Source: Candidatus Latescibacterota bacterium (lineage in GTDB: Bacteria > Latescibacterota > CBDCVA01). From it: DNA of 64,000 nucleotides. Numbering within the stretch: the stretch's first letter is position 1; the number at the start of each line of letters is the position of its first letter. The stretch spans positions 132,093-196,092 of the forward strand of contig CBDCVA010000001.1 in the NCBI GenBank assembly GCA_965222935.1. The letters run 5' to 3'. The notes under the pieces are model-generated. The model had not been told where the DNA came from and made no database searches. It worked only from the letters and a program-made list of their open reading frames with translations. Shown in pieces: positions 38,720 to 51,722 of this stretch. The translations under genes and the position numbers were made by a program.

Positions 38720-39637
38720 TCAGTCGATTCCGCGCCACTCCCGACCGATGCGATCATAGCGCTCATGCAGATCGGCCACCGTTTCATCCGCCAACGGTAG
38801 CTGCGTCTCGACCGCGTCGATATTGGCGAGCATGTGCTCGGGATCGCGGGTGCCGACGATCGCGGTGTGCATGTCCTCGTGTGCGAGGACAAAACCCAGG
38901 GCGAGCGCGATGGGGTCCTTCGGGGCTTCCGCGATCGGCCCCGGTTCCAGGAGCGCCCTCGCGCGTTTCAAGCGTTCGAGGTTCGTGCCGGATAGCCCCG
39001 CGTCGCCGGGGGAGACCGCCTTGCCCCAGGCAGCGTTGGCGATCGGCCTCTTGGCGATAAGCCCCATTCCCCGCTCTCTGGCCCGCTCGAATATGCTGTA
39101 CCGGGGCCCCTGGTCGACCAGGTTGAACGCGATCTGAAGCGTGTCGAACAGGCCGCTCTCGATGGCCCATTCGGCCTCCTCGTTCTCGCCGCTGTAGCCG
39201 ACGAACCGGGTCTTCCCCGCCTCCTTGGCGTCCATCACCGCCTCGATCACATCGTCGGGCGTCGGCGCCGAGATGTCGTAGGCGTGGACCTGCACGAGGT
39301 CGACGCGGTCCGTCCTCAGCTTCTTCAGGCTTAAATCGATGCCCCGCCGCACCGTCTTGCCAGTCCACGGCTGCCCCGATGAACCGGTGGAGACGTGGCC
39401 GGCCTTGGTGGCCAGGACGAACTCATCGCGGCGATGGCCCACCGTCAAGCCGATCAACTCTTCGCTGTTGGCGTAGCACTCCGCGGTATCGAGGAAGTTG
39501 ATGCCGGCGTCCAGGGCCGCGCCGAGGATACGGCCCGCCCGCCGGGGCTCATCGATGGAGAATGAGCCTATCTCCACGAGGCCTGCGCCGAGGCGGCTGA
39601 CGCGAAGACCCGTCTTACCCAGCGTCGTCATCTCCAT
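38720..39637 (-). CDS. aldo/keto reductase
   Basis: AKR fold: …LDTAECY… catalytic tetrad region and …GYSGENEE…. About 305 aa. Confidence 0.85.
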   Translation of the reverse strand: MEMTTLGKTGLRVSRLGAGLVEIGSFSIDEPRRAGRILGAALDAGINFLDTAECYANSEELIGLTVGHRRDEFVLATKAGHVSTGSSGQPWTGKTVRRGIDLSLKKLRTDRVDLVQVHAYDISAPTPDDVIEAVMDAKEAGKTRFVGYSGENEEAEWAIESGLFDTLQIAFNLVDQGPRYSIFERARERGMGLIAKRPIANAAWGKAVSPGDAGLSGTNLERLKRARALLEPGPIAEAPKDPIALALGFVLAHEDMHTAIVGTRDPEHMLANIDAVETQLPLADETVADLHERYDRIGREWRGID

Positions 39638-39758
39638 GCGATGTCTCCTTTTAATCGCGCCCCTGGTCGAGGGCGAGAAGAACGTCAAGACCGGATGCCA
39701 TCCATTGCCCCCAGGTATTCAGGAACCTACATTCAGTATACACAGGGAGGAGGGGGAC

Positions 39759-40025
39759 ATGGACATCTTCGTTACAGGCGTCATCGAGCGGCAAAAGGAT
39801 GACTGGCTCGCATTCTGCCCCGAACTGGAGATCAACACCTTCGGGGCTACCGAAGAAGATGCACGGGAAAGCCTTGAGGAGGCCATCATCGGGTATCTGC
39901 AAACGGCTGAGGCCAGTAATAGACTCGAAGAACTACGCCATGTGTTAGAGACGCGCTCGGCCCAGCAATTGTCCTTCAAGAAGGACGTGGAGGAAGATGA
40001 GTGGCTTGCGTCTCCAGTAGGTTAA
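39759..40025 (+). CDS. hicB: HicB-family antitoxin
   Basis: …VIERQKDDWLAFCPELEINTFGATEEDARESLEEAI… fits HicB_lk_antitox. GGAGGAGGGGG ribosome-binding site. About 55% GC. Confidence 0.7.
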   Translation: MDIFVTGVIERQKDDWLAFCPELEINTFGATEEDARESLEEAIIGYLQTAEASNRLEELRHVLETRSAQQLSFKKDVEEDEWLASPVG

Positions 40026-40050
40026 CACGACCGATGGGCTGGGAAATTTT

Positions 40051-40296
40051 GTGCCTCATCTCCCGAATCTGACGTGGAAGCAGTTCGTAAAGTTGGCAGA
40101 AATCAAGGGCTATGTGTTTGCGAGAGTCAGAGGAAGCCACGTCATCTATGAGAATCCCGAGGTTCCGTTGCCCGAGGGTATCATTCCCATTCCACGAAAG
40201 AAAAACATCCCCAAAGACACACGCCGCGCCTTACTACGACAACTTGGCGTCAGCCCCGACGATGTACAAATCTTCTTAGAAACCAAGCAAATCTAA
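40051..40296 (+). CDS. hicA: HicA-family mRNA interferase toxin
   Basis: YcfA/HicA pattern …KQFVKLAEIKGYVFARVRGSHVIYEN…PIPRKKNIPKDTRRALLRQLGV. About 47% GC. Confidence 0.75.
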   Translation: MPHLPNLTWKQFVKLAEIKGYVFARVRGSHVIYENPEVPLPEGIIPIPRKKNIPKDTRRALLRQLGVSPDDVQIFLETKQI

Positions 40297-40424
40297 CGAA
40301 GCGGGACAAGTCCATAAGGCCCTAGATTGCAGTAGGGCTGTCATGTAGACATTCAATCAGCCACACCTTCGCCTTACTCCAACTCCCCCAACCACAGGTA
40401 CCCTTTTAGAAAGTCGTGATCGGC

Positions 40425-43400
40425 TCAGGGCTGGGCTTCCTGCGCGGCACGTCCGGCTCCCTTCAGCAGACCGGACCTCTGGCGCTGCGGCGCCGGTGGC
40501 TTTCGCATCGCGTCGGGCGCGTCGGGCAGTTCATCGGCCCCGAAGCAGGGACCGGAGATGACGGCGTCCAGGAGCCTCGCCTGTTCTGGATAACCCGTTA
40601 GAGTCGCCTCCAGCACCCAGAGCAGTTCGAGCAGCTCCGTCGTGAACTGGCTCGTCCAGCGCTCGGGGCGAGTGTCGTCCAGCGGCGAGGATTTCCTGCC
40701 CGCGCCCCTCTTCATCCGGTACTTGAGCCACGACCGCACCACCTTGAGGCCCGAGACCTCGAACTCGAAGACTTCCGGGGCGACGGGCTCGAACGCGCCC
40801 TCGCCCACATGGAGCGTTCGCGTCCCGTCGTTATAGTCGAATGCTTCGGGGTAGCCATCGGGATCGCCGGGGACGGGCTTGACGCACCTGGCCGCGCCGC
40901 GCGGGACGCGGCTTCGCTGTTCGCCCTCGGGGACGAAGCGCTCGCCGTACGTGTGGAGATGCAGCAGACGCGCGCCCGCGCTTCGCACCGCCTCGAACAG
41001 GGTGGCGTCCTTCGTGATAGGAACGCGCAACTCGCGCGACCCCAGTTCCTTCGCATAGCGGGCGGTGAAGGCCGGCTGCGCCAGCGCGCCGTAGATGTAG
41101 GCCAGGATATCCTCCGGCGTCACCTTGCGCTCGTAGGCCGCGCCGAGCAGGTCGAGCAGGCCGGGGAGGACGTTGACCTCCGTCGCGTCGGCGGTGCGGT
41201 AGAGGGGTATAGAGCTTCCAGCACGACCTGAGAAATAGTTACGGTCGGGAATGAAGGCGCAGGCGGTTAGACTTGGCCCACCCGATATTGCCTGTGTGAG
41301 AATCGTCGTCAGATATATCTGTCTCTCGCCGTGAGCGCGCCATAGATCGGGGCGGAGAAGGTCGCCCAGCCTGCTGTCGGCGAACATCCACTGCCGGTCG
41401 AATGAACGATACGCGTAACGCTCGATGCGGGGAATCGCAGCGTTACGGGGCAACTGATCAAGAGGCGCCTCGGCCTCTTCGCCATCCTTGAGCGGCGGGT
41501 ACTTGCGTGCTGTTTTGCGGTCGCGCGTTTCTTTGAAGGCGGCGGCCCTGTCCGCGGAGGCCAACAGCGTGCGCCAACGCGCCGCCAATGTTTCGGGATC
41601 GGGGCAAATCGGCCAAGTTCGTTGAAACTGAACGCCTGAATGTTGCCACGGCATGAGGTCGCTCAGAAGAGGCAAGTCGAAATAGTCGCCCACCCCCGCC
41701 GGGCGGAAGGGGGCCTGCCAGTCATCGGGGCAGTCCTCCCAATCGACCGATGCAAACCCGTAGATCGCATCAAGCGCCGCGAGCTTGTCACCGCGCGTTC
41801 CCTCGATGCGGGCATAGTGAACGGCGGCGGGCTCAGTCTCTCTCGCTTCACCATATCGTACGGCTACGGCGATAGCCACCGGGGTAAGGATGGCGAAGAC
41901 GTTGTCGCTCTTGCGCGAACCGCGCCCCTCTCCGCCGAGGTCGATGATCCAGATTTGGTCGCACAGGCGGCGCATGTGTTCACGCATCCCGCTAAAAGCG
42001 TCGCCATCGAGGTAGCTCGACGCGCTGATGAAGCTGACGACGCCCGGCCCCGAGGCCTTCGCGTGCTCGAAGACCTTCCACAGCGCCTAGCGCCAGAAGT
42101 AGACGTAAAGGTTGTAGAGGTTTCTGACGTCGCCGCCGTGTCCGGCCTTGACGGCGGGGTCCCGGAAATCGCCGAAGATCGCGTGTGAGGGCCCGCCGTC
42201 GTCGTCCCAGCGGACCCAGCCGCCGGTGAGGGCCCTGTTGTCGCCGCTGGCGGTCTCGTGGCGGTCGTAGGGCGGGTTGCCCACGCAGACGATCACGGGG
42301 ACCTCGCTCTTGACCTGGAGCGCCCTGGTGTGCTGCTCGGCGATGGGTTCGAGGTAGAAAGACAGCGCGAGCGGTTGAGCGTGGGGGCTTTCGAGCGTGT
42401 CGGTCAGGTAGACGTGCGTGCCGTCCTGGGGGAGCGACGCGCCACGATCGCGCAGGGCGCGGCTGACGCGCAGTTCGGTCACGGCGTAGGGGCCGACCAT
42501 ATGCTCGAAGCCGTAGAGGTTGGCGGCCAGCGCGGTGGCCTTGCCCGGCACGGCTCCCGGACCCTGCTCGTCCTCGACCCGGCTGAGGGCGTGCTCGATG
42601 ACGCCGAGGAGGTAGGTTCCCGTGCCGGAAGCCGGATCGAGCGTGACGACGTCGGGATCGGCGAATCCCAGGGGCCTGCTGATGCGGTTCACGAGCAGAT
42701 CGTCAATGAGGCGGACCTGGGCGCGGACGACCTCGACGGGGGTGTAGTAGACCCCGGCATCCTTACGCAGCCTGGGGTCGTAGGCGGCGAGAAAGTCCTC
42801 GTAGAAATAAAGCCAGGGGTCCTCGGGGGCCCTGAGCGAATCGGTCGGGACCTCGGCGACCACGCGCATGAGCAGATCGAGGGAGGCGGAGATTTCGGCC
42901 CGAGCTCTGGGGTCGGTCAGGACCTGAAGGGCGCGCGCGAGCAGGTTGTGCTCAGCGGCCAGGGCCGTTTCGGCGTGGGGGAGGGTCAGCGGGTTGGCCC
43001 CCTCGCTGCGGGCCAGCAGCAGGGCGAAAGTGACGGTTTGCGCGTAGGCATCGGCGAACTGCTCGTCGCGCGCGTCCGGGAAAAGGAGCTGCCGCCAGTC
43101 CCTTGCGAGTTGGACGAGGGGCGATTGCGGTTCGCGGAGGGCGTCGGTGACATCGTCGCGGAGCAGGCGGCACAACGGTGCGAGCAGGCGGGCGAAGCCC
43201 TCGAGATCGAGGCGGCCCTCGCGGTCGTAGGGCAGAATGGGATTCCATGAGAAGAAATCGCGCAACAGACGTTCCACCGCGCCCGCGTCTTCGAGGGCGG
43301 CGGCCTTCTTGCCGTCGGAGGCGATGTCGCCACGGAGATGGACGATCCTGCCCACCGGCTTGCCATCGCGATAGAGCGCCCATTCGTTGCCGTCCGTGTA

Positions 43401-43742
43401 GAGGAGGTTGGGGATGGCCGAGAAGCGCTTCCACTGATCGCGGTTGTGGCCGGTGAAGCGCCTGGCATTGACTCCGACTCCGGGGGCCTTGAGCTCGACG
43501 TAACCCGCGAGCAGGCCGTTGAGATGGGCGGCAAAATCGGGGCGGCCCAGGCGGTCGGGGAGCCTGGCCTCGCCCGTGCAGACGGCGTTCCAGCCGAGGG
43601 CGCGGGCGGCGTCAGCCATGAGGTTCTCGAAGGGGCCGCGCAACTGGTCTTCGGGCGCGCCCTGGGTCAGTTGCGTCATCTTGGCCGTGACCGCCTGGCC
43701 GAAGGACTCCAAAGCCTTGTGTATCAGGTTGTTGGGCATCAT
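40425..43742 (-). pseudogene. MmeI-like single-chain type IIL/IIG restriction-modification enzyme (PD-ExK nuclease + N6-adenine MTase + TRD) interrupted by one in-frame TAG
   Basis: N-terminal …RPDFAAHLNGLLAGYVELKAPG… (D-x-ExK like MmeI). MTase motif I DPASGTGTYL and motif IV VGNPPYD. The frame is continuous across the TAG at 42087-42089 (…NLYVYFWR*ALWKVFEHAKASGPGVVSFISASSYLDGDAFSGMREH…), giving about 1,105 codons. Confidence 0.7.
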
Positions 43743-43769: not shown

Positions 43770-44669
43770 TTACGCATCGACGCCGCCTCGTCCATGGGCC
43801 GCCCACAGCCGTTGCAGGGGCGCATAGCTCAGGAATTCAATGCCCTCCTCCTCCGCGATAGCCGCTACCCGTTCGGACGTCATGAACTCGAGGGACGACC
43901 GCCTGCCCTCGGGCGTGGCGCTGACGCCTTCCACCAGCGGGCTGGACATGATGGCTTCGAGCTCCCCGGTGACGATCGCGGGATGCATCGCCCACTCGCT
44001 GAGGCCGGAGGGTAGCGCCCGCAGCGCCTTCGTCAAGATGGACACCTTCCGGCCGGGATCGATTCGGCCGCAATCGGTCACCCTGTGATCGATGGCGGGC
44101 AATCCCCGCGCCCGTAGCTTCTCAACGCCGTCCTTGCGCCCGACCCTCAAGGCCATTCCATATTCGATGGCGAGGCCGACGGTCATGTCAAAAAGGCTCT
44201 CACGGAGCTCATGGGTGCCGTAGTGGCTATCGAGGTGCGTGGGTTGCAAGCCGGTGGCGAGGACCGCTTCGATCTGGGCCCTGTACTCTCGTTCCACTTC
44301 GGCGGGGTCCGCATGCATCAGGAGCTCGGCGTATCGGTTATCGAGGGGGAAATAGCCCGATTCATCGAGTAGCGACGGGACCCTGTCGAAGGGTGTCAAG
44401 GGCTTCCATCGGTAGTTGACGTATTCGCTCACTAGGGTGAGGTGCACGCCGAAAGGGATGCGGGGGTTTTCCTTGAGGAGATGGATGGCGTGGCCGCTCC
44501 ACGGGGCCGGCATCATCAACGAACAGGAGGTGGCGAGGCCGTCCTCGATGGCCCGCAGGGTGCCCTCGTTGTGGGCGTGACAGAGGCCGAAATCGTCCGT
44601 GCTAAGGATCAATAGTCGCGCATCGGGTGGATATCCGAGCCATGCGCAGGCGCCCCGATTGCCCGGCAT
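43770..44669 (-). CDS. YdjC/ChbG-family carbohydrate deacetylase
   Basis: …LLILSTDDFGL…H…HLTL… metal-binding pattern of the YdjC family. Confidence 0.7.
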   Translation of the reverse strand: MPGNRGACAWLGYPPDARLLILSTDDFGLCHAHNEGTLRAIEDGLATSCSLMMPAPWSGHAIHLLKENPRIPFGVHLTLVSEYVNYRWKPLTPFDRVPSLLDESGYFPLDNRYAELLMHADPAEVEREYRAQIEAVLATGLQPTHLDSHYGTHELRESLFDMTVGLAIEYGMALRVGRKDGVEKLRARGLPAIDHRVTDCGRIDPGRKVSILTKALRALPSGLSEWAMHPAIVTGELEAIMSSPLVEGVSATPEGRRSSLEFMTSERVAAIAEEEGIEFLSYAPLQRLWAAHGRGGVDA

Positions 44670-44737: not shown

Positions 44738-45966
44738 TCATAGAGCGCGCCGCACGGCATCGAACGCCTCGCCGCACACGCTCAATGTGCGTTCCAGATC
44801 GGCGTCGGTGTGGGCTGCGCTCACAAACCAGTGGTGACGCGGATGGAGCAGCACCCCGCCTCGGGTGACCTCGGTGTAGAAGACCCTTCTGGCCTCTTCG
44901 GAGCGCTCTTCGGGTTGGTATCCGAACCTCAGGTCGGGCATGGGCGGCACACCGTGGCCCGGGCCTCCACGCGGGCGTCCTGGGCCAGCCCGTTGAGTCC
45001 GTCCAGAAGCCGCTGGCCTATGCGCCAGATATGGGGTATGACCTCGCCCTCCTTGAGCCTTTGGATGGTGGCCACGGCGGCGGCCATGGCGGGCGAATTG
45101 GTGTAGAAGGTAGACGACAGATGGGTGCGATCCAGAAAACACTGCATCACATCGGCTCGGCCGGCGAGCACCGAGATGCAATAGCCGTTGGAGATAGCCT
45201 TGCTGAATGTCGCCAGGTCCGGGGTGATGCGATAGTACTCCTGGGCGCCTCCCAGCGCCATGCGGAACCCCGACCGCATCTCGTCCAGAATGAATAGCGC
45301 GCCATGATGATGGGCCAGCGCCTTCGCGCCCTCCAGGAAGCCCGGCTGCGGCGCCTCCGCCTCGAGGGGCATCATGATGATGCAGGCCACTTGATCCTTG
45401 TTCCGGTTCAGGACGGCTTCCAAGGAGTCCAGATTGTTGTACTCGAAGGTGAGGATGTCATCCCGCACGTGGCGTGGGATCCCGGCGTCGTAAGGATTGC
45501 ACCAGTCGTGCCAGCCGTTGTAGCCCCAGCGCACGACTTTGTCCCGCCGGGTCCAGATTCGCGCCAAGCGCACGGCGGCTGAAGTGGCATCTGAACCGGC
45601 CTTGAAGAAGTGTACCAACTCGGCGCACGGGATGATCTCCACCAGGAGCTGCGCCAAGGTGTTCTGGACGGGTCTCGTCATCGCGAAGGCGAAGCCCTGC
45701 CGGATCTCACGAATGGCCGCCTCGTCAACCTCAGGGTCCCGATGGCCCAATACCACGATGCCGAGCCCCAGCATCCAGTCCAGGAACTTGTTGCCGTCCA
45801 CATCCCACAGGTAGGCCCCTTCCCCTCTGGAGACGAACAGGGGATACTCGCCCTCGATGAACAGTTCGGGGCGTTTGGACTGGGTCGTTCCGCCGGCATA
45901 GACCTTGCACGCCTCGGCATAGAGGCGCTCCGATTGCACGAGGCTCAGCGGCGCGCGTTCGCTCAT
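44738..45966 (-). CDS. class III (GSA-aminomutase-like) aminotransferase, reading frame broken by a 1-nt indel
   Basis: N-terminal 360 aa in one frame (…GGTTQSKRPELF…). The conserved C-terminus (…PDLRFGYQPEERSEEARRVFYTEVTRGGVLLHP…FVSAAHTDADLERTL…) is in another frame. The switch is at the CCCGGG run 44958-44963. Confidence 0.65.
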
Positions 45967-47408: not shown

Positions 47409-50006
47409 TTAAAGCTCAAACGTGTAGCTGTATTTCGCGTACCAGAACGTGCCGCCAAAACCAAACGGGCTGTACTCACCGAAGGGTCTGCCAACGATTT
47501 CACCCGGGTCACCGCCGTCTGCAACAGAGTAATTATCAGGCTCGACAGAGAGGAGATTTTGAACGCCAAGTGATACCGTCGATTGGGCAGCGAGTGAGAG
47601 GGTGGATTCGAGGTCGAGCAGGAATGAGCTACCGAAGACCTGGTGACCTATGGACCATTCATCCCAGTAATCGTAATAATGGACGCGCCCCAGTACATTC
47701 CAGTTCTGGGCCAGGGCTTGTGTCAGGGAGATATTCCAGCGGTGTCTGGGAAGGCCCTTCTCCAATAACGTGATGCGCGTTTCGTCGAGATGTTCAGGGT
47801 TGTATCGGGTGACTTCGGTGCCCGTGTAGTTATAGGCGAGGCTCAGTCCACCTGTGCCTACCGGAGTTGTGAGAACGACGTCGATGCCCTGGGTGTCGGT
47901 TTCAAAGTCGTTGGTGAAGAACCGGAATTCCTGCAGGTTTCCCGCCTCTTCTATGCCCGCGGCCAACAACAACTCAACCTGTTCGGGCGTAAGCTCCTGA
48001 TCGCTGGAGGTAGCCATGCGATCTTCCACCGTGATATTGAAGTAGTCGATCGTCAGATTTAATGCGTCATTACTGACGACGGTACCCACGGTGAAGTTCT
48101 TTGACTTTTCAGGTTTGAGAGCCTCGCCGCCTACCTCTGCGGCTGCTGGATGGGTAGGAGGGATCGTGCCTTTGTTCACCAATATGAATCTGCCTTCTGA
48201 ATCTTCGCCGAATTCAGTCGTTACGTTGAAGGTATTTTGCTGACCGGGGGTCGGCGCCCTGAAACCGGTGCTGTAACCGCCGCGCACTTTCAGTTCGTCG
48301 GTCAAACCATAGTTGGTCGCCAGCTTGTAGTTGGTGGTTCCACCGAAATCATCGAAGTTTTCATGGCGCAGGGCGGCGGCAAGCAGCCAGTTGTCGAGCG
48401 GGGTGACATCAGCTTCGATATAGGCGGCCTGGTTGGACCGATCCCATACGCCTGCGGTGAGATTGCTAAAGCCATTGAAGCCATTGGACCCTGAACTAAA
48501 GCCCTGGGAGGCCATAGAGCGATTTATTTTGAAAGACTCTTCTTGCCCCTGCACAACCTCGAATTGCTCCGTTCGATATTCAAGGCCCGCGGCGAGGAAC
48601 ACCTGCTCGTTCACCGGATAAGCAGCGTCAAGATTGAAATTGGTATCTGTCTGGATGTAGTCTCCGGGATCGAAAGACGTCGGCGTGTCGGGACCGAGAG
48701 AAGCGTTGACGGTGTTGAAAATGAAGAAGTCGGATGCGTGACGTCCGTGATACGCACTTAGATCCAGGGTGAGCAGTTCCGCAAACGTTCTCTTCAGACC
48801 CACCAGAAGGCTCCGGTCTACCGTATCCGCGCCGAATCGGGGCGTGAAGCCACCGGGAAAGAGTTCCTGGAATGTGAATAGATTGGGGTCATCGAAAACC
48901 TGTTGCAAGGCAACGGGGTCCGGAACGTGGTCGGTGATGGTGACCACGGGAACTTCGGGTTTGTCGCCTTCCTTATCAATATCAAAACTCAGATCGCCGA
49001 CCAGTAACGTCTTGCCCTCGTCATTACTGAAGACGCCGGGGCGCGTATTGGGATTGCGGTAATAGAACCCGCCTTCCACTTGCTTGCTGGCGAAGTTGGC
49101 GTGGCCATAGAGCTTGATGTCATTGTAGATGTCGGCGCCGTAGTTGGCGAAGAATTTCAGGTCGTCTCTAATGAAGGGTTGGCCCCAGATTTGCGCTGGA
49201 TCGGCCACATGCGTATTCCCCGCGGCAACCAGAGCAGCGGCATCAACCCGCTGTATGGAGCGGATGGTCTCATCCGTATTGCCATACTCCAGGCTGAGAT
49301 TGGCCCAGGCACTTCTACGGCCCAAACCGATATTGCCAGCGAGCGCATACGCGAGCCCATCGCCTTCCTGGAAAATGCCGGGTTTGATTTCAAGGGACCC
49401 TTTTTCGTGGCTGTCCTTGAGCTGGAAATTCAGCACGCCGGCAATGGCGTCAGACCCGTACTGTGCCGAGGCGCCGTCGCGCAGTACTTCCACCCGTTTC
49501 AAGGCGATTGACGGAATGGCGGCTATGTCCGGACCCTGCGAACCATCGGCTATGCCGTTGCCCAGCCAGTAGATCACGGAAGCGCGGTGGCGGCGCTTGC
49601 CGTTGACGAGCACCAACGTGTGGTCGGGGGCCAGCCCCCGCATATTGGGAGGGCGGACGACCGTTGCCGCATCGCTGATGGGCTGAAGACTCACGTTGTA
49701 GGAGGGCACGGCATCCCTCACCAGATCTTGTAGATCCTTGCCGCCCTGCTTGACGAGATCGCTGACTTGAACAACATCGATGGGTACTGCCGAATCGGCG
49801 ACAGAACGCGGCTTGGCGCGGGAACCGAGCACGACCGTTTCCATCTCGATCACGTCCTGCGGCATGGGTGCGACAGACGTTGAATCCGCGCCTTCGGGGT
49901 GCTCAACCTCCTGCGACACGGCCACGGTCGCGACGCTCATGGAAAACAGCAACGCGATGCCTAGCGGAAGGAGGGAAAGTTTACGATCCGGATTCTTGGG
50001 GTTCAT
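47409..50006 (-). CDS. TonB-dependent outer-membrane receptor
   Basis: Signal peptide, plug domain (…VVLGSRAKP…, …LRDGASAQYGSDAIAGVLNF…), and about 22 beta-strands with an aromatic-rich C-terminus. Confidence 0.85.
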   Translation of the reverse strand: MNPKNPDRKLSLLPLGIALLFSMSVATVAVSQEVEHPEGADSTSVAPMPQDVIEMETVVLGSRAKPRSVADSAVPIDVVQVSDLVKQGGKDLQDLVRDAVPSYNVSLQPISDAATVVRPPNMRGLAPDHTLVLVNGKRRHRASVIYWLGNGIADGSQGPDIAAIPSIALKRVEVLRDGASAQYGSDAIAGVLNFQLKDSHEKGSLEIKPGIFQEGDGLAYALAGNIGLGRRSAWANLSLEYGNTDETIRSIQRVDAAALVAAGNTHVADPAQIWGQPFIRDDLKFFANYGADIYNDIKLYGHANFASKQVEGGFYYRNPNTRPGVFSNDEGKTLLVGDLSFDIDKEGDKPEVPVVTITDHVPDPVALQQVFDDPNLFTFQELFPGGFTPRFGADTVDRSLLVGLKRTFAELLTLDLSAYHGRHASDFFIFNTVNASLGPDTPTSFDPGDYIQTDTNFNLDAAYPVNEQVFLAAGLEYRTEQFEVVQGQEESFKINRSMASQGFSSGSNGFNGFSNLTAGVWDRSNQAAYIEADVTPLDNWLLAAALRHENFDDFGGTTNYKLATNYGLTDELKVRGGYSTGFRAPTPGQQNTFNVTTEFGEDSEGRFILVNKGTIPPTHPAAAEVGGEALKPEKSKNFTVGTVVSNDALNLTIDYFNITVEDRMATSSDQELTPEQVELLLAAGIEEAGNLQEFRFFTNDFETDTQGIDVVLTTPVGTGGLSLAYNYTGTEVTRYNPEHLDETRITLLEKGLPRHRWNISLTQALAQNWNVLGRVHYYDYWDEWSIGHQVFGSSFLLDLESTLSLAAQSTVSLGVQNLLSVEPDNYSVADGGDPGEIVGRPFGEYSPFGFGGTFWYAKYSYTFEL

Positions 50007-50219
50007 CAGAAAACTCCTTATAGCGCTTGATAGCGCTTGAGATGGGCCCATTCATCACGTCGCACGTGAACGCAGCGCCTACCAAGAAAACGATTTTTCC
50101 TTTCGGGGGCAAGGGCAAATGCGTCCGAAAAGTAGGCCGAGTCGATTCTCTTCAACTCGTGGTGCTTCCGGCGCGAGAAGCGGCTCCTTCAGGTTGGGAC
50201 TGGCGGGTTCAGCCTTCAC

Positions 50220-50306
50220 ATGGCGGAGGGCCAGGGATTCGAACCCTGAAGGGCTTGCGCCCGGCGGTTTTCAAGACCGCTGCCTTACCGGTTAGGTCTA
50301 GCCCTC
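50220..50306 (-). tRNA. tRNA-Ser (anticodon UGA), 87 nt, class II with long variable arm
   Basis: Minus-strand read GGAGGGC…GCGGT-CTTGAAA-ACCGC-(CGGGCGCAAGCCC)…CAGGGTTCGAATCCCTG-GCCCTCC-G-CCA. 7-bp acceptor stem, G73 discriminator, encoded CCA. Confidence 0.85.
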
Positions 50307-50325
50307 CACTGGCCCCGATCCGGGC

Positions 50326-51621
50326 TTATGCCGAATCTCTCGTCGCCACGGCGCGCAGCGCCTCGCGCGCTGCCTCGATGCTCCGGTCGATATCGTCTTC
50401 GGTGTGCGCCAGCGAGACAAAATTCGCCTCGAACTGGGAGGGAGCAAAATAAACGCCGCCCTCGATCCCCTTCCAGAAGTACGAGGCGAACGCTCCGCCG
50501 TCGGGGGCCGAGGCCGATGCGAAATCGGTCACGGGGTCCGCCGTGAGAAACACGGTGAGCATCGAGCCGACGCGATTGATCACGACGGGGAGGCCCAGAT
50601 CAGCGGCTGCTCCGGTGATCCCCTCGGCGAACCGCTCCGCCATGGCGTCGAGCTGTTCGTAGGCATCAGGCTCTCCCAGTGCTGTCAAGGTCGTGTGCCC
50701 TGCGGCCATGGCGAGGGGATTGCCCGAGAGCGTCCCCGCTTGAAACACCTTACCGACCGGCAGCATCTCGGCCATCAGGTCCCTCCGGCCACCGAACGCC
50801 CCTACGGGTAAGCCGCCGCCGATGACCTTGCCGAGCGTCGTCAGGTCCGGCAGAATGCCGTAGAGCGCCTGGGCACCGCCAGGATCGACTCGGAAGCCCG
50901 TGATGACCTCGTCGAAGATCAGGATGGCGCCGTGGCGCGTCGTGAGTTCTCGAAGCGCCTCCAGAAAGCCCGGCTGCGGCGGAACCACGCCCATGTTGCC
51001 GGCGATGGGTTCGACGATCACGCCCGCGATCTCGTCTCCGCGCGCTGTGAACGCCGTCCGTAAGGCTTCGGCGTCATTGTAGGGTAGGATCAACGTGTCC
51101 TGCGCCGCTGCTCGGGTGACGCCGGGGCTATCGGGTGAGCCCAGTGTTGCGGCCGATGACCCCGCCCGAATCAGAAGCGCATCCACGTGGCCGTGGTAGC
51201 AGCCCTCGAACTTCACGATCAACTCACGTCCCGTCGCTCCGCGCGCCAGGCGGATGGCGCTCATCGTGGCCTCGGTCCCCGAGTTCACCATCCGCACTTG
51301 CTCGACGGACGGCACCCTGTCGCAAATCAACTCGGCCATCTGCGCTTCGAGCGCGGTCGGTGCCCCGTAGCTGGTGCCCCGCCTGGCTGCGCTCTCGACG
51401 GCTTCGATAACGCGCGGGTGCGCATGGCCGAGGATCAGCGGTCCCCAGGAGCAAACGTAGTCGATGTACTCGCGGCCTTCGACCGTCCGTATACGCGAGC
51501 CCTGTGCGGAGGCGATGAACAGTGGCGTCCCACCCACGGCCCCGAAAGCGCGGGCTGGGCTGTTGACCCCTCCGGGAATGACGCGCTGGGCGCGAGCGAA
51601 GAGTTCGCTCGAAGACGGCAT
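50326..51621 (-). CDS. hemL: glutamate-1-semialdehyde 2,1-aminomutase
   Basis: Full-length GSA-AM with the PLP-lysine region (…[12 protein letters not shown]…). Confidence 0.9.
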
Positions 51622-51722
51622 GGTGGGCGCGGGCAAGATAGGTGAGCTAGCCCGGCGGTGTCAAGGCGGCGCGGTCTACGAATCCGGCAACCCGCGGCGC
51701 TGCGATCCGTTCAAAGAATGGT

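Follow-up and report, generated by a model that had tools for sequence, protein, structure and literature searches.

A probable Class 2 hicBA toxin-antitoxin operon with a divergent small HicB, next to a type IIG restriction-modification gene interrupted by an amber codon

Introduction

The classical HicAB systems of E. coli K-12, Burkholderia pseudomallei and Yersinia pestis (Classes 3 and 4; PDB 6g26, 4c26) pair a HicA-family toxin that carries a Gly-Ser-His turn with a HicB antitoxin whose N-terminal partial RNase-H fold is the HicA-binding part of the complexes and whose C-terminus is an HTH or RHH domain. In the B. pseudomallei toxin, G22 and H24 are both required for toxicity (PMC3969222). 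Classes 1 and 2 are the most prevalent hicBA types, and Class 2 is defined by hicB lying upstream of hicA, by a HicB of 63-103 codons and by the lack of a recognisable DNA-binding domain in that protein (Gerdes, 2024, mBio, PMC10865869). Related structures from Thermus thermophilus are the small stand-alone UPF0150 domain TTHA1756 (PDB 2yzt) and the HicA-family protein TTHA1913 (PDB 1whz).

Here we describe a hicB-hicA pair in a 64,000-nucleotide stretch of bacterial DNA, hereafter called the window. The pair shares the HicA family and the Gly-Ser-His turn with the classical systems as well as the N-terminal fold of HicB, but its gene order is reversed and its HicB has no C-terminal HTH or RHH domain. 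It resembles Class 2 in being compact and mobile-looking, with the antitoxin first, a small HicB devoid of a DNA-binding domain and a short spacer in front of an 81-aa HicA; it differs in that its HicB is highly divergent, falls below Pfam thresholds and ends in a subfamily-specific C-terminal tail, and in that it resides in a high-GC, Chloroflexota-like host.

Results and Discussion

The toxin gene

A first-pass annotation of the window had proposed two small open reading frames as hicB and hicA, and both are indeed present (Table 1). The downstream frame, ORF2, matches the Pfam model HicA_toxin (PF07927) from end to end (positions 1-58 of 58; E 9.6e-13; 48.5 bits, the cut-off being 27), PHROG 353 'toxin' (E 1.5e-10) and the PDB HicA 9svk (E 4.7e-4). 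The GSH signature that had been noticed earlier corresponds to G28-S29-H30, a putative active-site turn, which aligns with G-S-A of B. pseudomallei HicA in 6g26_E, where the alanine is the H24A substitution, and with G-G-H of TTHA1913, the alignment with the latter including the histidine. The turn is invariant in all three members of the HicA subfamily that we compared. As far as sequence can tell, ORF2 is a HicA toxin.

Table 1. Features of the locus (positions in the window; L002 is a relative 93% identical to the window)
Feature	Position	Strand	Remarks
AKR gene start	39637		divergent from hicB
Intergenic region, AKR start to hicB	39638..39758		121 bp; GC 56%
hicB-like antitoxin gene (ORF1)	39759..40025	+	88 aa; ATG start; pI 4.2
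Segment missing in L002	39956..40364		409 bp: hicB codons 67-88, whole hicA, 68 bp of downstream spacer
Predicted hicA toxin gene (ORF2)	40051..40296	+	81 aa; GTG start; pI 9.9; 25 nt past ORF1 stop
hicA-RM spacer	40297..40424		128 bp; between convergent stop codons; low GC (52%)
Type IIG (IIL-like) single-polypeptide restriction-modification (RM) gene	40425..43742	-	1105 codons; convergent with hicA, 128 bp apart
Diverged stretch in RM target-recognition domain	41207..41512	-	beyond BLASTN detection between the window and L002; GC3 0.63
Amber stop (TAG) in RM frame	42087..42089	-	replaces conserved Trp (TGG) in YVYFWR-W-ALWK

A divergent small HicB

The RNase-H-like HicB signature that had been read into ORF1 is borne out by remote homologues, by the fold and by the conserved association with hicA, but not by curated models: whereas Pfam recognises HicA, no HicB/UPF0150 match to ORF1 was found in Pfam (E<=0.1), NCBIfam or PADLOC, and PADLOC returned nothing for the hicA product either. 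A phmmer search of the PDB yielded nothing relevant, and the sole direct profile match is a weak one to PHROG 497, which is HicB-like (E 5.4e-4). The protein does have 115 remote homologues at E<=1e-3. Among the 60 that were aligned, 35 match the UPF0150-like model PF21748, 25 match HicB_lk_antitox (PF15919) and three also match the HicA_toxin model. A profile built for ORF1 retrieves 2yzt (6.5e-5) and B. pseudomallei HicB (6g1c/6g1n, about 3e-3) from the PDB.

An AlphaFold model of ORF1 based on this 60-sequence alignment has strands at residues 8-12, 15-20 and 25-29 and a helix at 32-52, with a pLDDT of 82-88 in the core and a moderate mean of 70.5. It displays the partial RNase-H fold beta-beta-beta-alpha(-beta), the fourth strand being absent from the prediction, so that the protein has at its N-terminus, from roughly residue 5 to 52, a beta-beta-beta-alpha partial RNase-H/UPF0150 domain, behind which come one further helix and a disordered acidic tail. 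(A single-sequence AlphaFold prediction came out all-helical, at odds with the alignment-based model, and was discarded.) The best Foldseek matches of the model are 2yzt (probability 1.0) and the antitoxin 3k6q (0.99), the small size of the domain keeping the E-values weak (0.09-0.25). TTHA1756 (2yzt) is the best match to ORF1 both by structure and by profile, superimposing with an rmsd of 1.3 A over 49 columns at 31% identity; ORF1 differs from it by the additional 35-residue helix and acidic tail. Pfam revealed no significant HTH, RHH or Phd/YefM match that would indicate a DNA-binding domain (PHD_like, at E 0.097, reached 13 bits where the cut-off is 27).

Might ORF1 be no antitoxin at all but a small, unrelated protein of UPF0150 type or a spurious reading frame, with HicA an orphan or otherwise controlled? 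The silence of the curated models, the modest E-values in both structure and sequence and the occurrence of UPF0150 domains outside toxin-antitoxin pairs would be compatible with such a scenario. Yet ORF1 starts with ATG behind a strong Shine-Dalgarno sequence (GGGAGGAGGGGG, 39745-39756), is called by gene callers in independent assemblies, and is acidic where HicA is basic (pI 4.2 versus 9.9). Moreover, an ORF1-like gene precedes hicA at three divergent loci, and some of its own homologues, as mentioned above, also match the toxin model. We regard a non-antitoxin role for ORF1 as highly improbable. By transitive homology, profile matches, the AlphaFold fold and the conserved pairing with hicA, ORF1 is a divergent small HicB.

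The pair and its class

The order hicB-hicA is kept at the window locus, at L039/L040 (HicB 48% and HicA 53% identical to those of the window) and at L041-44 (HicB 33%). These include the closest relatives of ORF1 (48% and 33% identity) in a set of 1.84 billion representative proteins, and at the two nearest HicB homologues the gap to the HicA homologue is 2-23 nt. Both share with ORF1 a motif in the tail, V-x-E-[ND]-[ED]-[WY]-[LV]-x-S (residues 76-84). At a paralogous locus, hicA was overlooked by gene callers and has ATG at the codon where hicA of the window has GTG. With hicB first, a HicB of 88 codons and no recognisable DNA-binding domain, the window pair falls within the definition of Class 2. 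Its antitoxin-first order had initially been described as the less common one, which is at variance with the prevalence of Classes 1 and 2 (PMC10865869).

A corollary is that a small HicB of sufficiently divergent sequence can slip past all curated HMMs. Because such proteins evade detection and because the paralogous hicA escaped gene calling, counts of Class 2 modules are likely too low in phyla with sparse sampling, the Chloroflexota among them.

Base composition and surroundings

The module stands out by its base composition. GC content is 53.9% in hicB, 49.6% in hicA and 51.9% in both together, the lowest value within the 64 kb; stretches of equal size reach so low a value in only 0.17% of cases. 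Low GC had been reported before against surroundings of about 70%; the former stands, but the surroundings are at 64-68%, with a mean of 65.6% (sd 3.8) over the whole window. Third codon positions conform to this picture, with a GC3 of 0.63 in hicB and 0.59 in hicA versus 0.77-0.87 in the neighbouring genes. The nearest paralogous hicBA module is as low in GC as that of the window, in a context of 64-66% GC, and adjoins an IS1595 fragment. The base composition of hicBA is thus foreign, and the module has probably been acquired horizontally, independently of its neighbours. Searches around 39300-40800 for target-site duplications or terminal inverted repeats gave only chance-level matches, no integrase or transposase is present among the called neighbours, and HicA had no tblastn match among plasmids and phages. 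A tRNA-anchored island was considered for the tRNA-Ser at 50221-50307 and rejected, there being no repeat of the 3' end of this tRNA anywhere in 33-52 kb.

All in all, with a probability of roughly three in four, we favour reading the locus as a compact type II toxin-antitoxin operon that belongs to Class 2 hicBA and that entered the genome by horizontal transfer, independently of the genes around it.

Did the acquisition disrupt a pre-existing gene cluster? The first-pass annotation had envisaged a coherent set of sugar/cyclitol genes split by the insertion, with the AKR gene on one side and YdjC and a TonB-dependent receptor on the other. We found no relative in which an AKR orthologue adjoins YdjC, as would be expected of an empty site. 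Relatives of YdjC at 58-70% identity have no RM gene, varied downstream neighbours and no AKR orthologue; the nearest AKR in GTDB species genomes (74% identity, in a Dehalococcoidia MAG) is not syntenic, and JGI metagenomes contain none closer than 59%. An adjacency of YdjC and AKR does occur in L046, but was rejected as evidence of synteny because the AKR there is only 32% identical to that of the window. The TonB-dependent receptor of the putative cluster is itself low in GC. The relatives thus give no support for the splitting of a sugar cluster.

Decay of the module in a close relative

Comparison within the lineage rests on two genomes, the window strain and L002. As mapped by BLASTN against the window and by reading the junction, L002 has lost a segment that comprises the 3' end of hicB and all of hicA (Table 1), while its RM gene is intact. 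The ancestor shared by the two strains already had both hicBA and the RM gene, and the loss of hicA in L002 shows that the module is dispensable.

This raises the possibility that hicBA is a decaying, non-functional relic, acquired once in the two-strain ancestor and drifting since, with a HicB that is perhaps truncated and has lost its DNA-binding domain. The deletion came at no obvious cost, and the remaining part of hicB differs between the strains by five non-synonymous and six synonymous codon changes. The promoter region may be read in the same sense: upstream of hicB in the window there is a weak sigma-70-like candidate, TTGCCC (39705-39710) and TACATT (39728-39733) separated by 17 nt, and its hexamers are weaker than those at the matching site in L002, TTGACA-17-TATACT (read by eye); a consensus scan returned no promoter above threshold in this region. 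The failure of HicB to reach Pfam thresholds and its lack of a DNA-binding domain would also fit a relic. On the other hand, both reading frames are intact in the window, and the catalytic Gly and His are conserved. There is a recognised and prevalent class of small HicBs that lack a DNA-binding domain, and since the length of HicB and its tail motif are kept in the 48%- and 33%-identical homologues paired with hicA, 88 residues are the native architecture and not the outcome of truncation. We consequently deem a relic unlikely and retain the reading of an intact Class 2 module in the window strain.

A possible mechanism

How might the module act? Because Class 2 had seen no experimental analysis as of 2024 (PMC10865869), we borrow the mechanism from Classes 3 and 4. 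By analogy, the basic HicA would have a dsRBD-like fold and act as a toxin that cleaves RNA independently of the ribosome, using the conserved turn with Gly28 and His30. The acidic HicB would bind the toxin protein with its beta-beta-beta-alpha partial RNase-H domain and so neutralise it, in the manner of the solved HicAB complexes. We infer that the two genes are co-transcribed from the region upstream of hicB. A strong Shine-Dalgarno sequence and ATG for the antitoxin versus a weak one and GTG for the toxin should keep HicB in excess. Were HicB synthesis to cease, either through phage-induced shut-off or because the locus has been lost, HicA would be set free and growth arrested. The module might serve addiction or defence. 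A terminator scan identified a single terminator-like site, located inside hicA on the wrong strand and of a kind expected by chance, and the spacer between hicA and the RM gene contains no convincing terminator or structured RNA (fold z-score +1.2; no match in Rfam).

HicB-operator autoregulation cannot be assumed in a HicB devoid of an HTH or RHH domain, and any autoregulation would have to proceed by other means. Conceivably, the C-terminal helix and the acidic-aromatic tail of this HicB subfamily stand in for the missing DNA-binding domain; the tail could enter the active site of HicA or lie over it, or it could act as a degron or trigger sensor. In the same speculative vein, the reciprocal decay of hicA and the RM gene described below might reflect functional incompatibility or redundancy instead of chance. 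We consider these ideas long shots; tail-based control, if true, would be a way of controlling HicA that has not been described for Class 2. The window pair, whose C-terminal tail is conserved, offers a reasonable test case for how HicA is controlled by a HicB that lacks a DNA-binding domain.

The neighbouring restriction-modification gene

The presence of a single-polypeptide RM gene of type IIG, IIL-like and convergent with hicA, was borne out. It starts 28 nt past the YdjC stop codon on the same strand. The N-terminus carries a PD...ELK nuclease motif (PDF...ELK), DPASGTG and NPPY mark the methyltransferase, and the target-recognition domain is of the Type_ISP_C family; the motifs are conserved in homologues. 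Pfam assigns N6_Mtase and Type_ISP_C (E 3.4e-76), the PADLOC model REase_MTase_IIG (PDLC03631) matches with 1187 bits over positions 5-1075 of 1086, and the PDB matches include LlaGI and DrdV (E about 1e-24). Among described enzymes, it is close to the single-polypeptide type IIG/IIL proteins such as DrdV (PDB 7lo5), with which it shares an N-terminal PD-(D/E)xK nuclease, a gamma-class N6-adenine methyltransferase with NPPY and a target-recognition domain. The methyltransferase-TRD module (Type_ISP_C) is also common to the type ISP enzymes LlaGI and LlaBIII, but because it has no helicase or translocase domain, the window enzyme does not belong to that type.

Unlike DrdV and its kind, the window gene is interrupted by an amber codon (Table 1), which the first-pass annotation had overlooked. 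Tryptophan occupies this position in L002 and in 115 of 115 motif-matched homologues, and all of the best 120 homologues are 1057-1169 aa long. A truncated product of 551 aa is called in the assemblies of two sequencing runs, the contigs of which are 100% identical to the window. Judged by its reading frame, the gene is a pseudogene in the window strain, and since the amber codon interrupts the frame, the enzyme is probably inactive here. Decay has gone opposite ways in the two strains, by a nonsense codon in the RM gene of the window strain and by deletion of hicA in L002, a comparison that illustrates fast and independent turnover of neighbouring defence or addiction genes.

Could hicBA and the RM gene nonetheless form one co-acquired, functionally coupled defence islet, in which, for instance, the toxin-antitoxin pair stabilises the RM segment or both provide layered anti-phage defence? 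The idea of a single inserted islet was part of the first-pass annotation, and it draws on the tight convergent arrangement of hicA and the RM gene, on their joint presence in the two-strain ancestor, on the absence of both hicBA and the RM gene downstream of YdjC in the 58-70% relatives, and on the frequency of HicA genes in defence islands (PMC10865869). The composition of the two parts argues otherwise, however, as GC3 is 0.59-0.63 in hicBA but host-like (0.77-0.87) in the RM gene. A Tectomicrobia MAG and one further MAG encode homologues of the latter (71-75% identity) that are solitary and surrounded by housekeeping genes, with no hicBA in their vicinity, just as no RM gene lies near the closest hicBA paralogue. 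The RM gene belongs to a large family of type IIG genes that are solitary and occur across phyla; it is widely transferred and was acquired separately from hicBA. The supposed islet would comprise only two elements, with neither flanking repeats nor mobile-element hallmarks such as an integrase or att sites; and because each strain has inactivated a different partner, neither part depends on the other. A coupled islet is, in our estimation, very unlikely. We would instead regard the adjacency of hicBA and the RM gene as a coincidence at a variable spot of the genome and not as a functional unit, given that the latter is a separate solitary gene, probably dead here, and that L002 has kept it while deleting hicA.

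Sequence change in the RM gene extends beyond the amber codon: the target-recognition domain contains a stretch of low GC3 that has diverged from its L002 counterpart beyond BLASTN detection (Table 1), which likely represents a specificity-determining swap.

A divergent Class 2 hicBA pair

Two small same-strand open reading frames, read in the first-pass annotation as a hicB-hicA pair, lie exactly where it had placed them (Table), and both are also gene-finder calls in L001, a separate, independent assembly of this strain (99.98% identical). The pair has a GC content of 51.9% (hicB 53.9%, hicA 49.6%) against a window mean of 65.6% (sd 3.8), so that the proposed contrast is real, albeit with a background of about 66% and not about 70%. 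No other stretch of that size within the 64 kb has a lower GC content, with just 0.17% of windows equally low, and its GC3 values (hicB 0.63, hicA 0.59) compare with 0.77-0.87 in the flanking genes. The low-GC tract spans exactly the interval from the AKR start to the RM stop.

Table. Coordinates of hicBA and neighbouring genes
Feature	Position	Strand	Remarks
ORF1 (hicB)	39759-40025	+	88 aa; ATG start
Shine-Dalgarno sequence of ORF1, GGGAGGAGGGGG	39745-39756	+	read from the sequence
ORF2 (hicA)	40051-40296	+	81 aa; GTG start, 25 nt past the ORF1 stop
AKR (aldo/keto reductase gene)	38720-39637	-	left flank; divergent from hicB
RM (restriction-modification) reading frame	40425-43742	-	convergent with ORF2; its end 128 bp past the ORF2 stop
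YdjC-family gene	43770-44669		its stop 28 nt before the RM frame start

ORF2 is a predicted HicA toxin, and a basic one (pI 9.9). It passes the Pfam HMM check, matching the entire HicA_toxin model at E 9.6e-13 (48.5 bits, above the gathering score of 27), and also matches PHROG 353 'toxin' (E 1.5e-10) and a solved HicA, 9svk (PDB; E 4.7e-4). In PDB chain alignments, His30 lines up with Ala in the B. pseudomallei HicA(H24A) constructs (G-S-A-H-H) and with His in T. thermophilus TTHA1913. In B. pseudomallei HicA, G22C and H24A remove toxicity (PMC3969222). The conserved GSH that had been claimed is present as G28-S29-H30 and is unchanged across the three recovered members of the subfamily.

Pfam, NCBIfam and PADLOC give no HicB or UPF0150 match to ORF1, and PDB gives no direct one; the HicB signature proposed for it thus fails the Pfam check and is upheld by remote homology, profile and fold. 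When 1.84 billion representative proteins were searched exhaustively with HMMER, 115 homologues came up at E<=1e-3, just three of them reaching E 1e-10 (ORF1 itself, the allele in the relative L002 and a 48%-identical protein). Among 60 aligned homologues, UPF0150-like PF21748 is matched by 35, HicB_lk_antitox PF15919 by 25 and, in addition, the HicA_toxin model by 3; a profile built from the alignment picks up TTHA1756 (2yzt) at 6.5e-5 and B. pseudomallei HicB (6g1c, 6g1n) at ~3e-3. The alignment-based AlphaFold2 model comprises a beta-beta-beta-alpha core (pLDDT 82-88) followed by one further helix and a disordered tail, and Foldseek ranks 2yzt (probability 1.0, with an rmsd of 1.3 A) and the antitoxin 3k6q (probability 0.99) highest for it. 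PHROG 497 'HicB-like' is matched directly, if weakly (E 5.4e-4). These lines of evidence concordantly identify ORF1 as a divergent small HicB, which is acidic (pI 4.2) and has no recognisable HTH, RHH or Phd/YefM domain.

For P0003, the closest homologue of ORF1 (48% identical, 88 aa), an uncalled hicA begins 23 nt downstream; it is 53% identical to the window hicA and has an ATG where the window has its GTG. The next nearest, P0004 (33%), has 2 nt downstream a protein of 99 aa that carries an N-G-S-H motif. Since hicB precedes hicA at all three loci, this order is a conserved trait of the subfamily, whose three HicBs have the C-terminal motif V-x-E-[ND]-[ED]-[WY]-[LV]-x-S in common. The view that antitoxin-first order is less common does not hold: HicA contexts have been grouped into 14 classes, of which Classes 1 and 2 were termed 'the most prevalent' (Gerdes 2024, PMC10865869), and the window pair has all elements of that paper's Class 2 hicBA definition. 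Its gene order is unusual only in comparison with the Class 3 and 4 hicAB operons that have been studied by experiment. The window hicBA thus joins a known, prevalent class as a new member of divergent sequence.

The metagenomes in which the window strain and L002 occur also contain a hicBA paralogue, at L039:3204-3739 and L040:309-841 (HicB 48%, HicA 53% identical to those of the window). It is low in GC (51% and 48%) amid 64-66% GC and lies beside a fragment of an IS1595 transposase; gene finders missed its hicA.

Loss of hicA in a relative, and possible roles

L002, a metagenome contig with ~93% nucleotide identity, matches the window layout, beginning in the spacer between AKR and hicB and running on through YdjC, aminotransferase, oxidoreductase and TonB-dependent receptor. 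Its RM is intact (1106 aa), and the segment corresponding to window 39956-40364 (hicB codons 67-88, the complete hicA gene and 68 bp of the spacer) is absent. Given this common layout, hicBA and RM were both already in the common ancestor, and each strain has later inactivated a different element, RM in the window and hicA in L002. Small indels in L002 are unreliable, as it is a long-read contig at 3x coverage; an error is an unlikely cause of a clean gap of 409 bp. In L002, the strain without hicA, the putative hicB promoter comes close to consensus (48-76, TTGACA-17-TATACT); in the window, with its intact toxin, it is weak (39705-39733, TTGCCC-17-TACATT).

How might the pair act? By analogy with solved HicAB complexes, the HicB partial RNase-H domain would bind HicA and cover its active-site face, whereas free HicA would cut RNA ribosome-independently and halt growth. 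The strong Shine-Dalgarno sequence and ATG of hicB, as against the weak Shine-Dalgarno sequence and GTG of hicA, would favour antitoxin excess. Because HicB is without a DNA-binding domain, the usual conditional autorepression should not be assumed. The loss of hicA in L002 shows that the module is dispensable; it may serve in addiction, in abortive infection or in nothing at all.

A separate, broken RM gene

The convergent RM gene had been called type IIL. Its frame of 1105 codons matches the type IIG model PDLC03631 of PADLOC over the full length (1187 bits), has LlaGI and DrdV, a type IIL enzyme, as PDB matches, and carries PDF...ELK (a PD-(D/E)xK motif), DPASGTG, NPPY and a Type_ISP_C domain. 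These features fit a type IIG, IIL-like gene, which is a TGG-to-TAG pseudogene in this strain: a single in-frame TAG (42087-42089, minus strand) interrupts the motif YVYFWR*ALWK, the position being Trp in L002 and in 115/115 motif-matched homologues (all 1057-1169 aa), and the truncated 551-aa product recurs in assemblies from two sequencing runs, on contigs 100% identical to the window. This recurrence rules out an assembly slip of one data set.

The Logan short-read contigs L001 (ending at 42040) and L021 (ending at 42011), from one run, overlap by exactly 30 nt, some 50 nt from the amber codon; a graph branch at 42011-42040 could stem from strain-level variation inside RM. Within the target-recognition domain (41207-41512, minus strand), GC3 drops to 0.63 and the BLASTN alignment to L002 is lost between ~93%-identical flanks, which looks like a specificity-region swap between strains.

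RM belongs to a very large family (>5,400 matches at E<1e-100). Homologues 67-76% identical come from MAGs named Acidobacteria, Tectomicrobia, Methylobacter and Aminicenantes, at least as close as the best match of the window's metabolic genes (AKR 74%, YdjC 70%) in any collection searched, and this cross-phylum closeness points to horizontal spread. That hicBA and RM form one islet is disfavoured by the host-like GC3 of the RM halves (0.77 and 0.87, except for a 306-bp stretch in the target-recognition domain) and by the two contexts examined elsewhere, in both of which RM is solitary among housekeeping genes without hicBA nearby. RM is a type IIG gene acquired independently of hicBA and now broken. 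The first-pass annotation is confirmed in its observation of the pair and partly supported in its interpretation.

The surrounding genes

A split sugar/cyclitol cluster, as had been envisaged, is not borne out: no relative in the data has an empty site joining the AKR and YdjC flanks. The best AKR orthologue in GTDB species genomes (74%, a Dehalococcoidia MAG) is not syntenic, and JGI metagenomes hold no AKR nearer than 59%. The aminotransferase-YdjC pair is kept with YdjC homologues at 70% and 62%, with unrelated genes and no RM downstream; an aminotransferase-like gene follows the 67% homologue and a sulfatase the 56% one, and only the 58% homologue is followed by an AKR-family gene, 32% identical to that of the window. 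Such varied downstream genes make the YdjC gene end a synteny breakpoint, at which RM and hicBA are lineage-specific. No flanking repeats, integrase or tRNA-derived att site were found around hicBA/RM.

The TonB-dependent receptor that had been counted in the cluster is compositionally foreign (GC 56%, GC3 0.66). It is full-length (47409-50051, minus strand; Plug and beta-barrel, 880 aa), sits in a genome most closely related to Dehalococcoidia/Chloroflexota MAGs and, being present in L002 too, is not an assembly chimera. A tRNA-Ser(tga) at 50221-50307 adjoins it, with no att-like repeat found. Two class-III aminotransferase paralogues (44929-45966 and 50326-51636, both minus strand), 5.6 kb apart, have short near-identical DNA stretches in common (repeat families D1 and D3). 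Between aminotransferase and YdjC lies a 67-aa ORF without a family match (44738-44941, minus strand), which is called in several assemblies of the lineage (L021, L022 and L002, where it has 77 aa).
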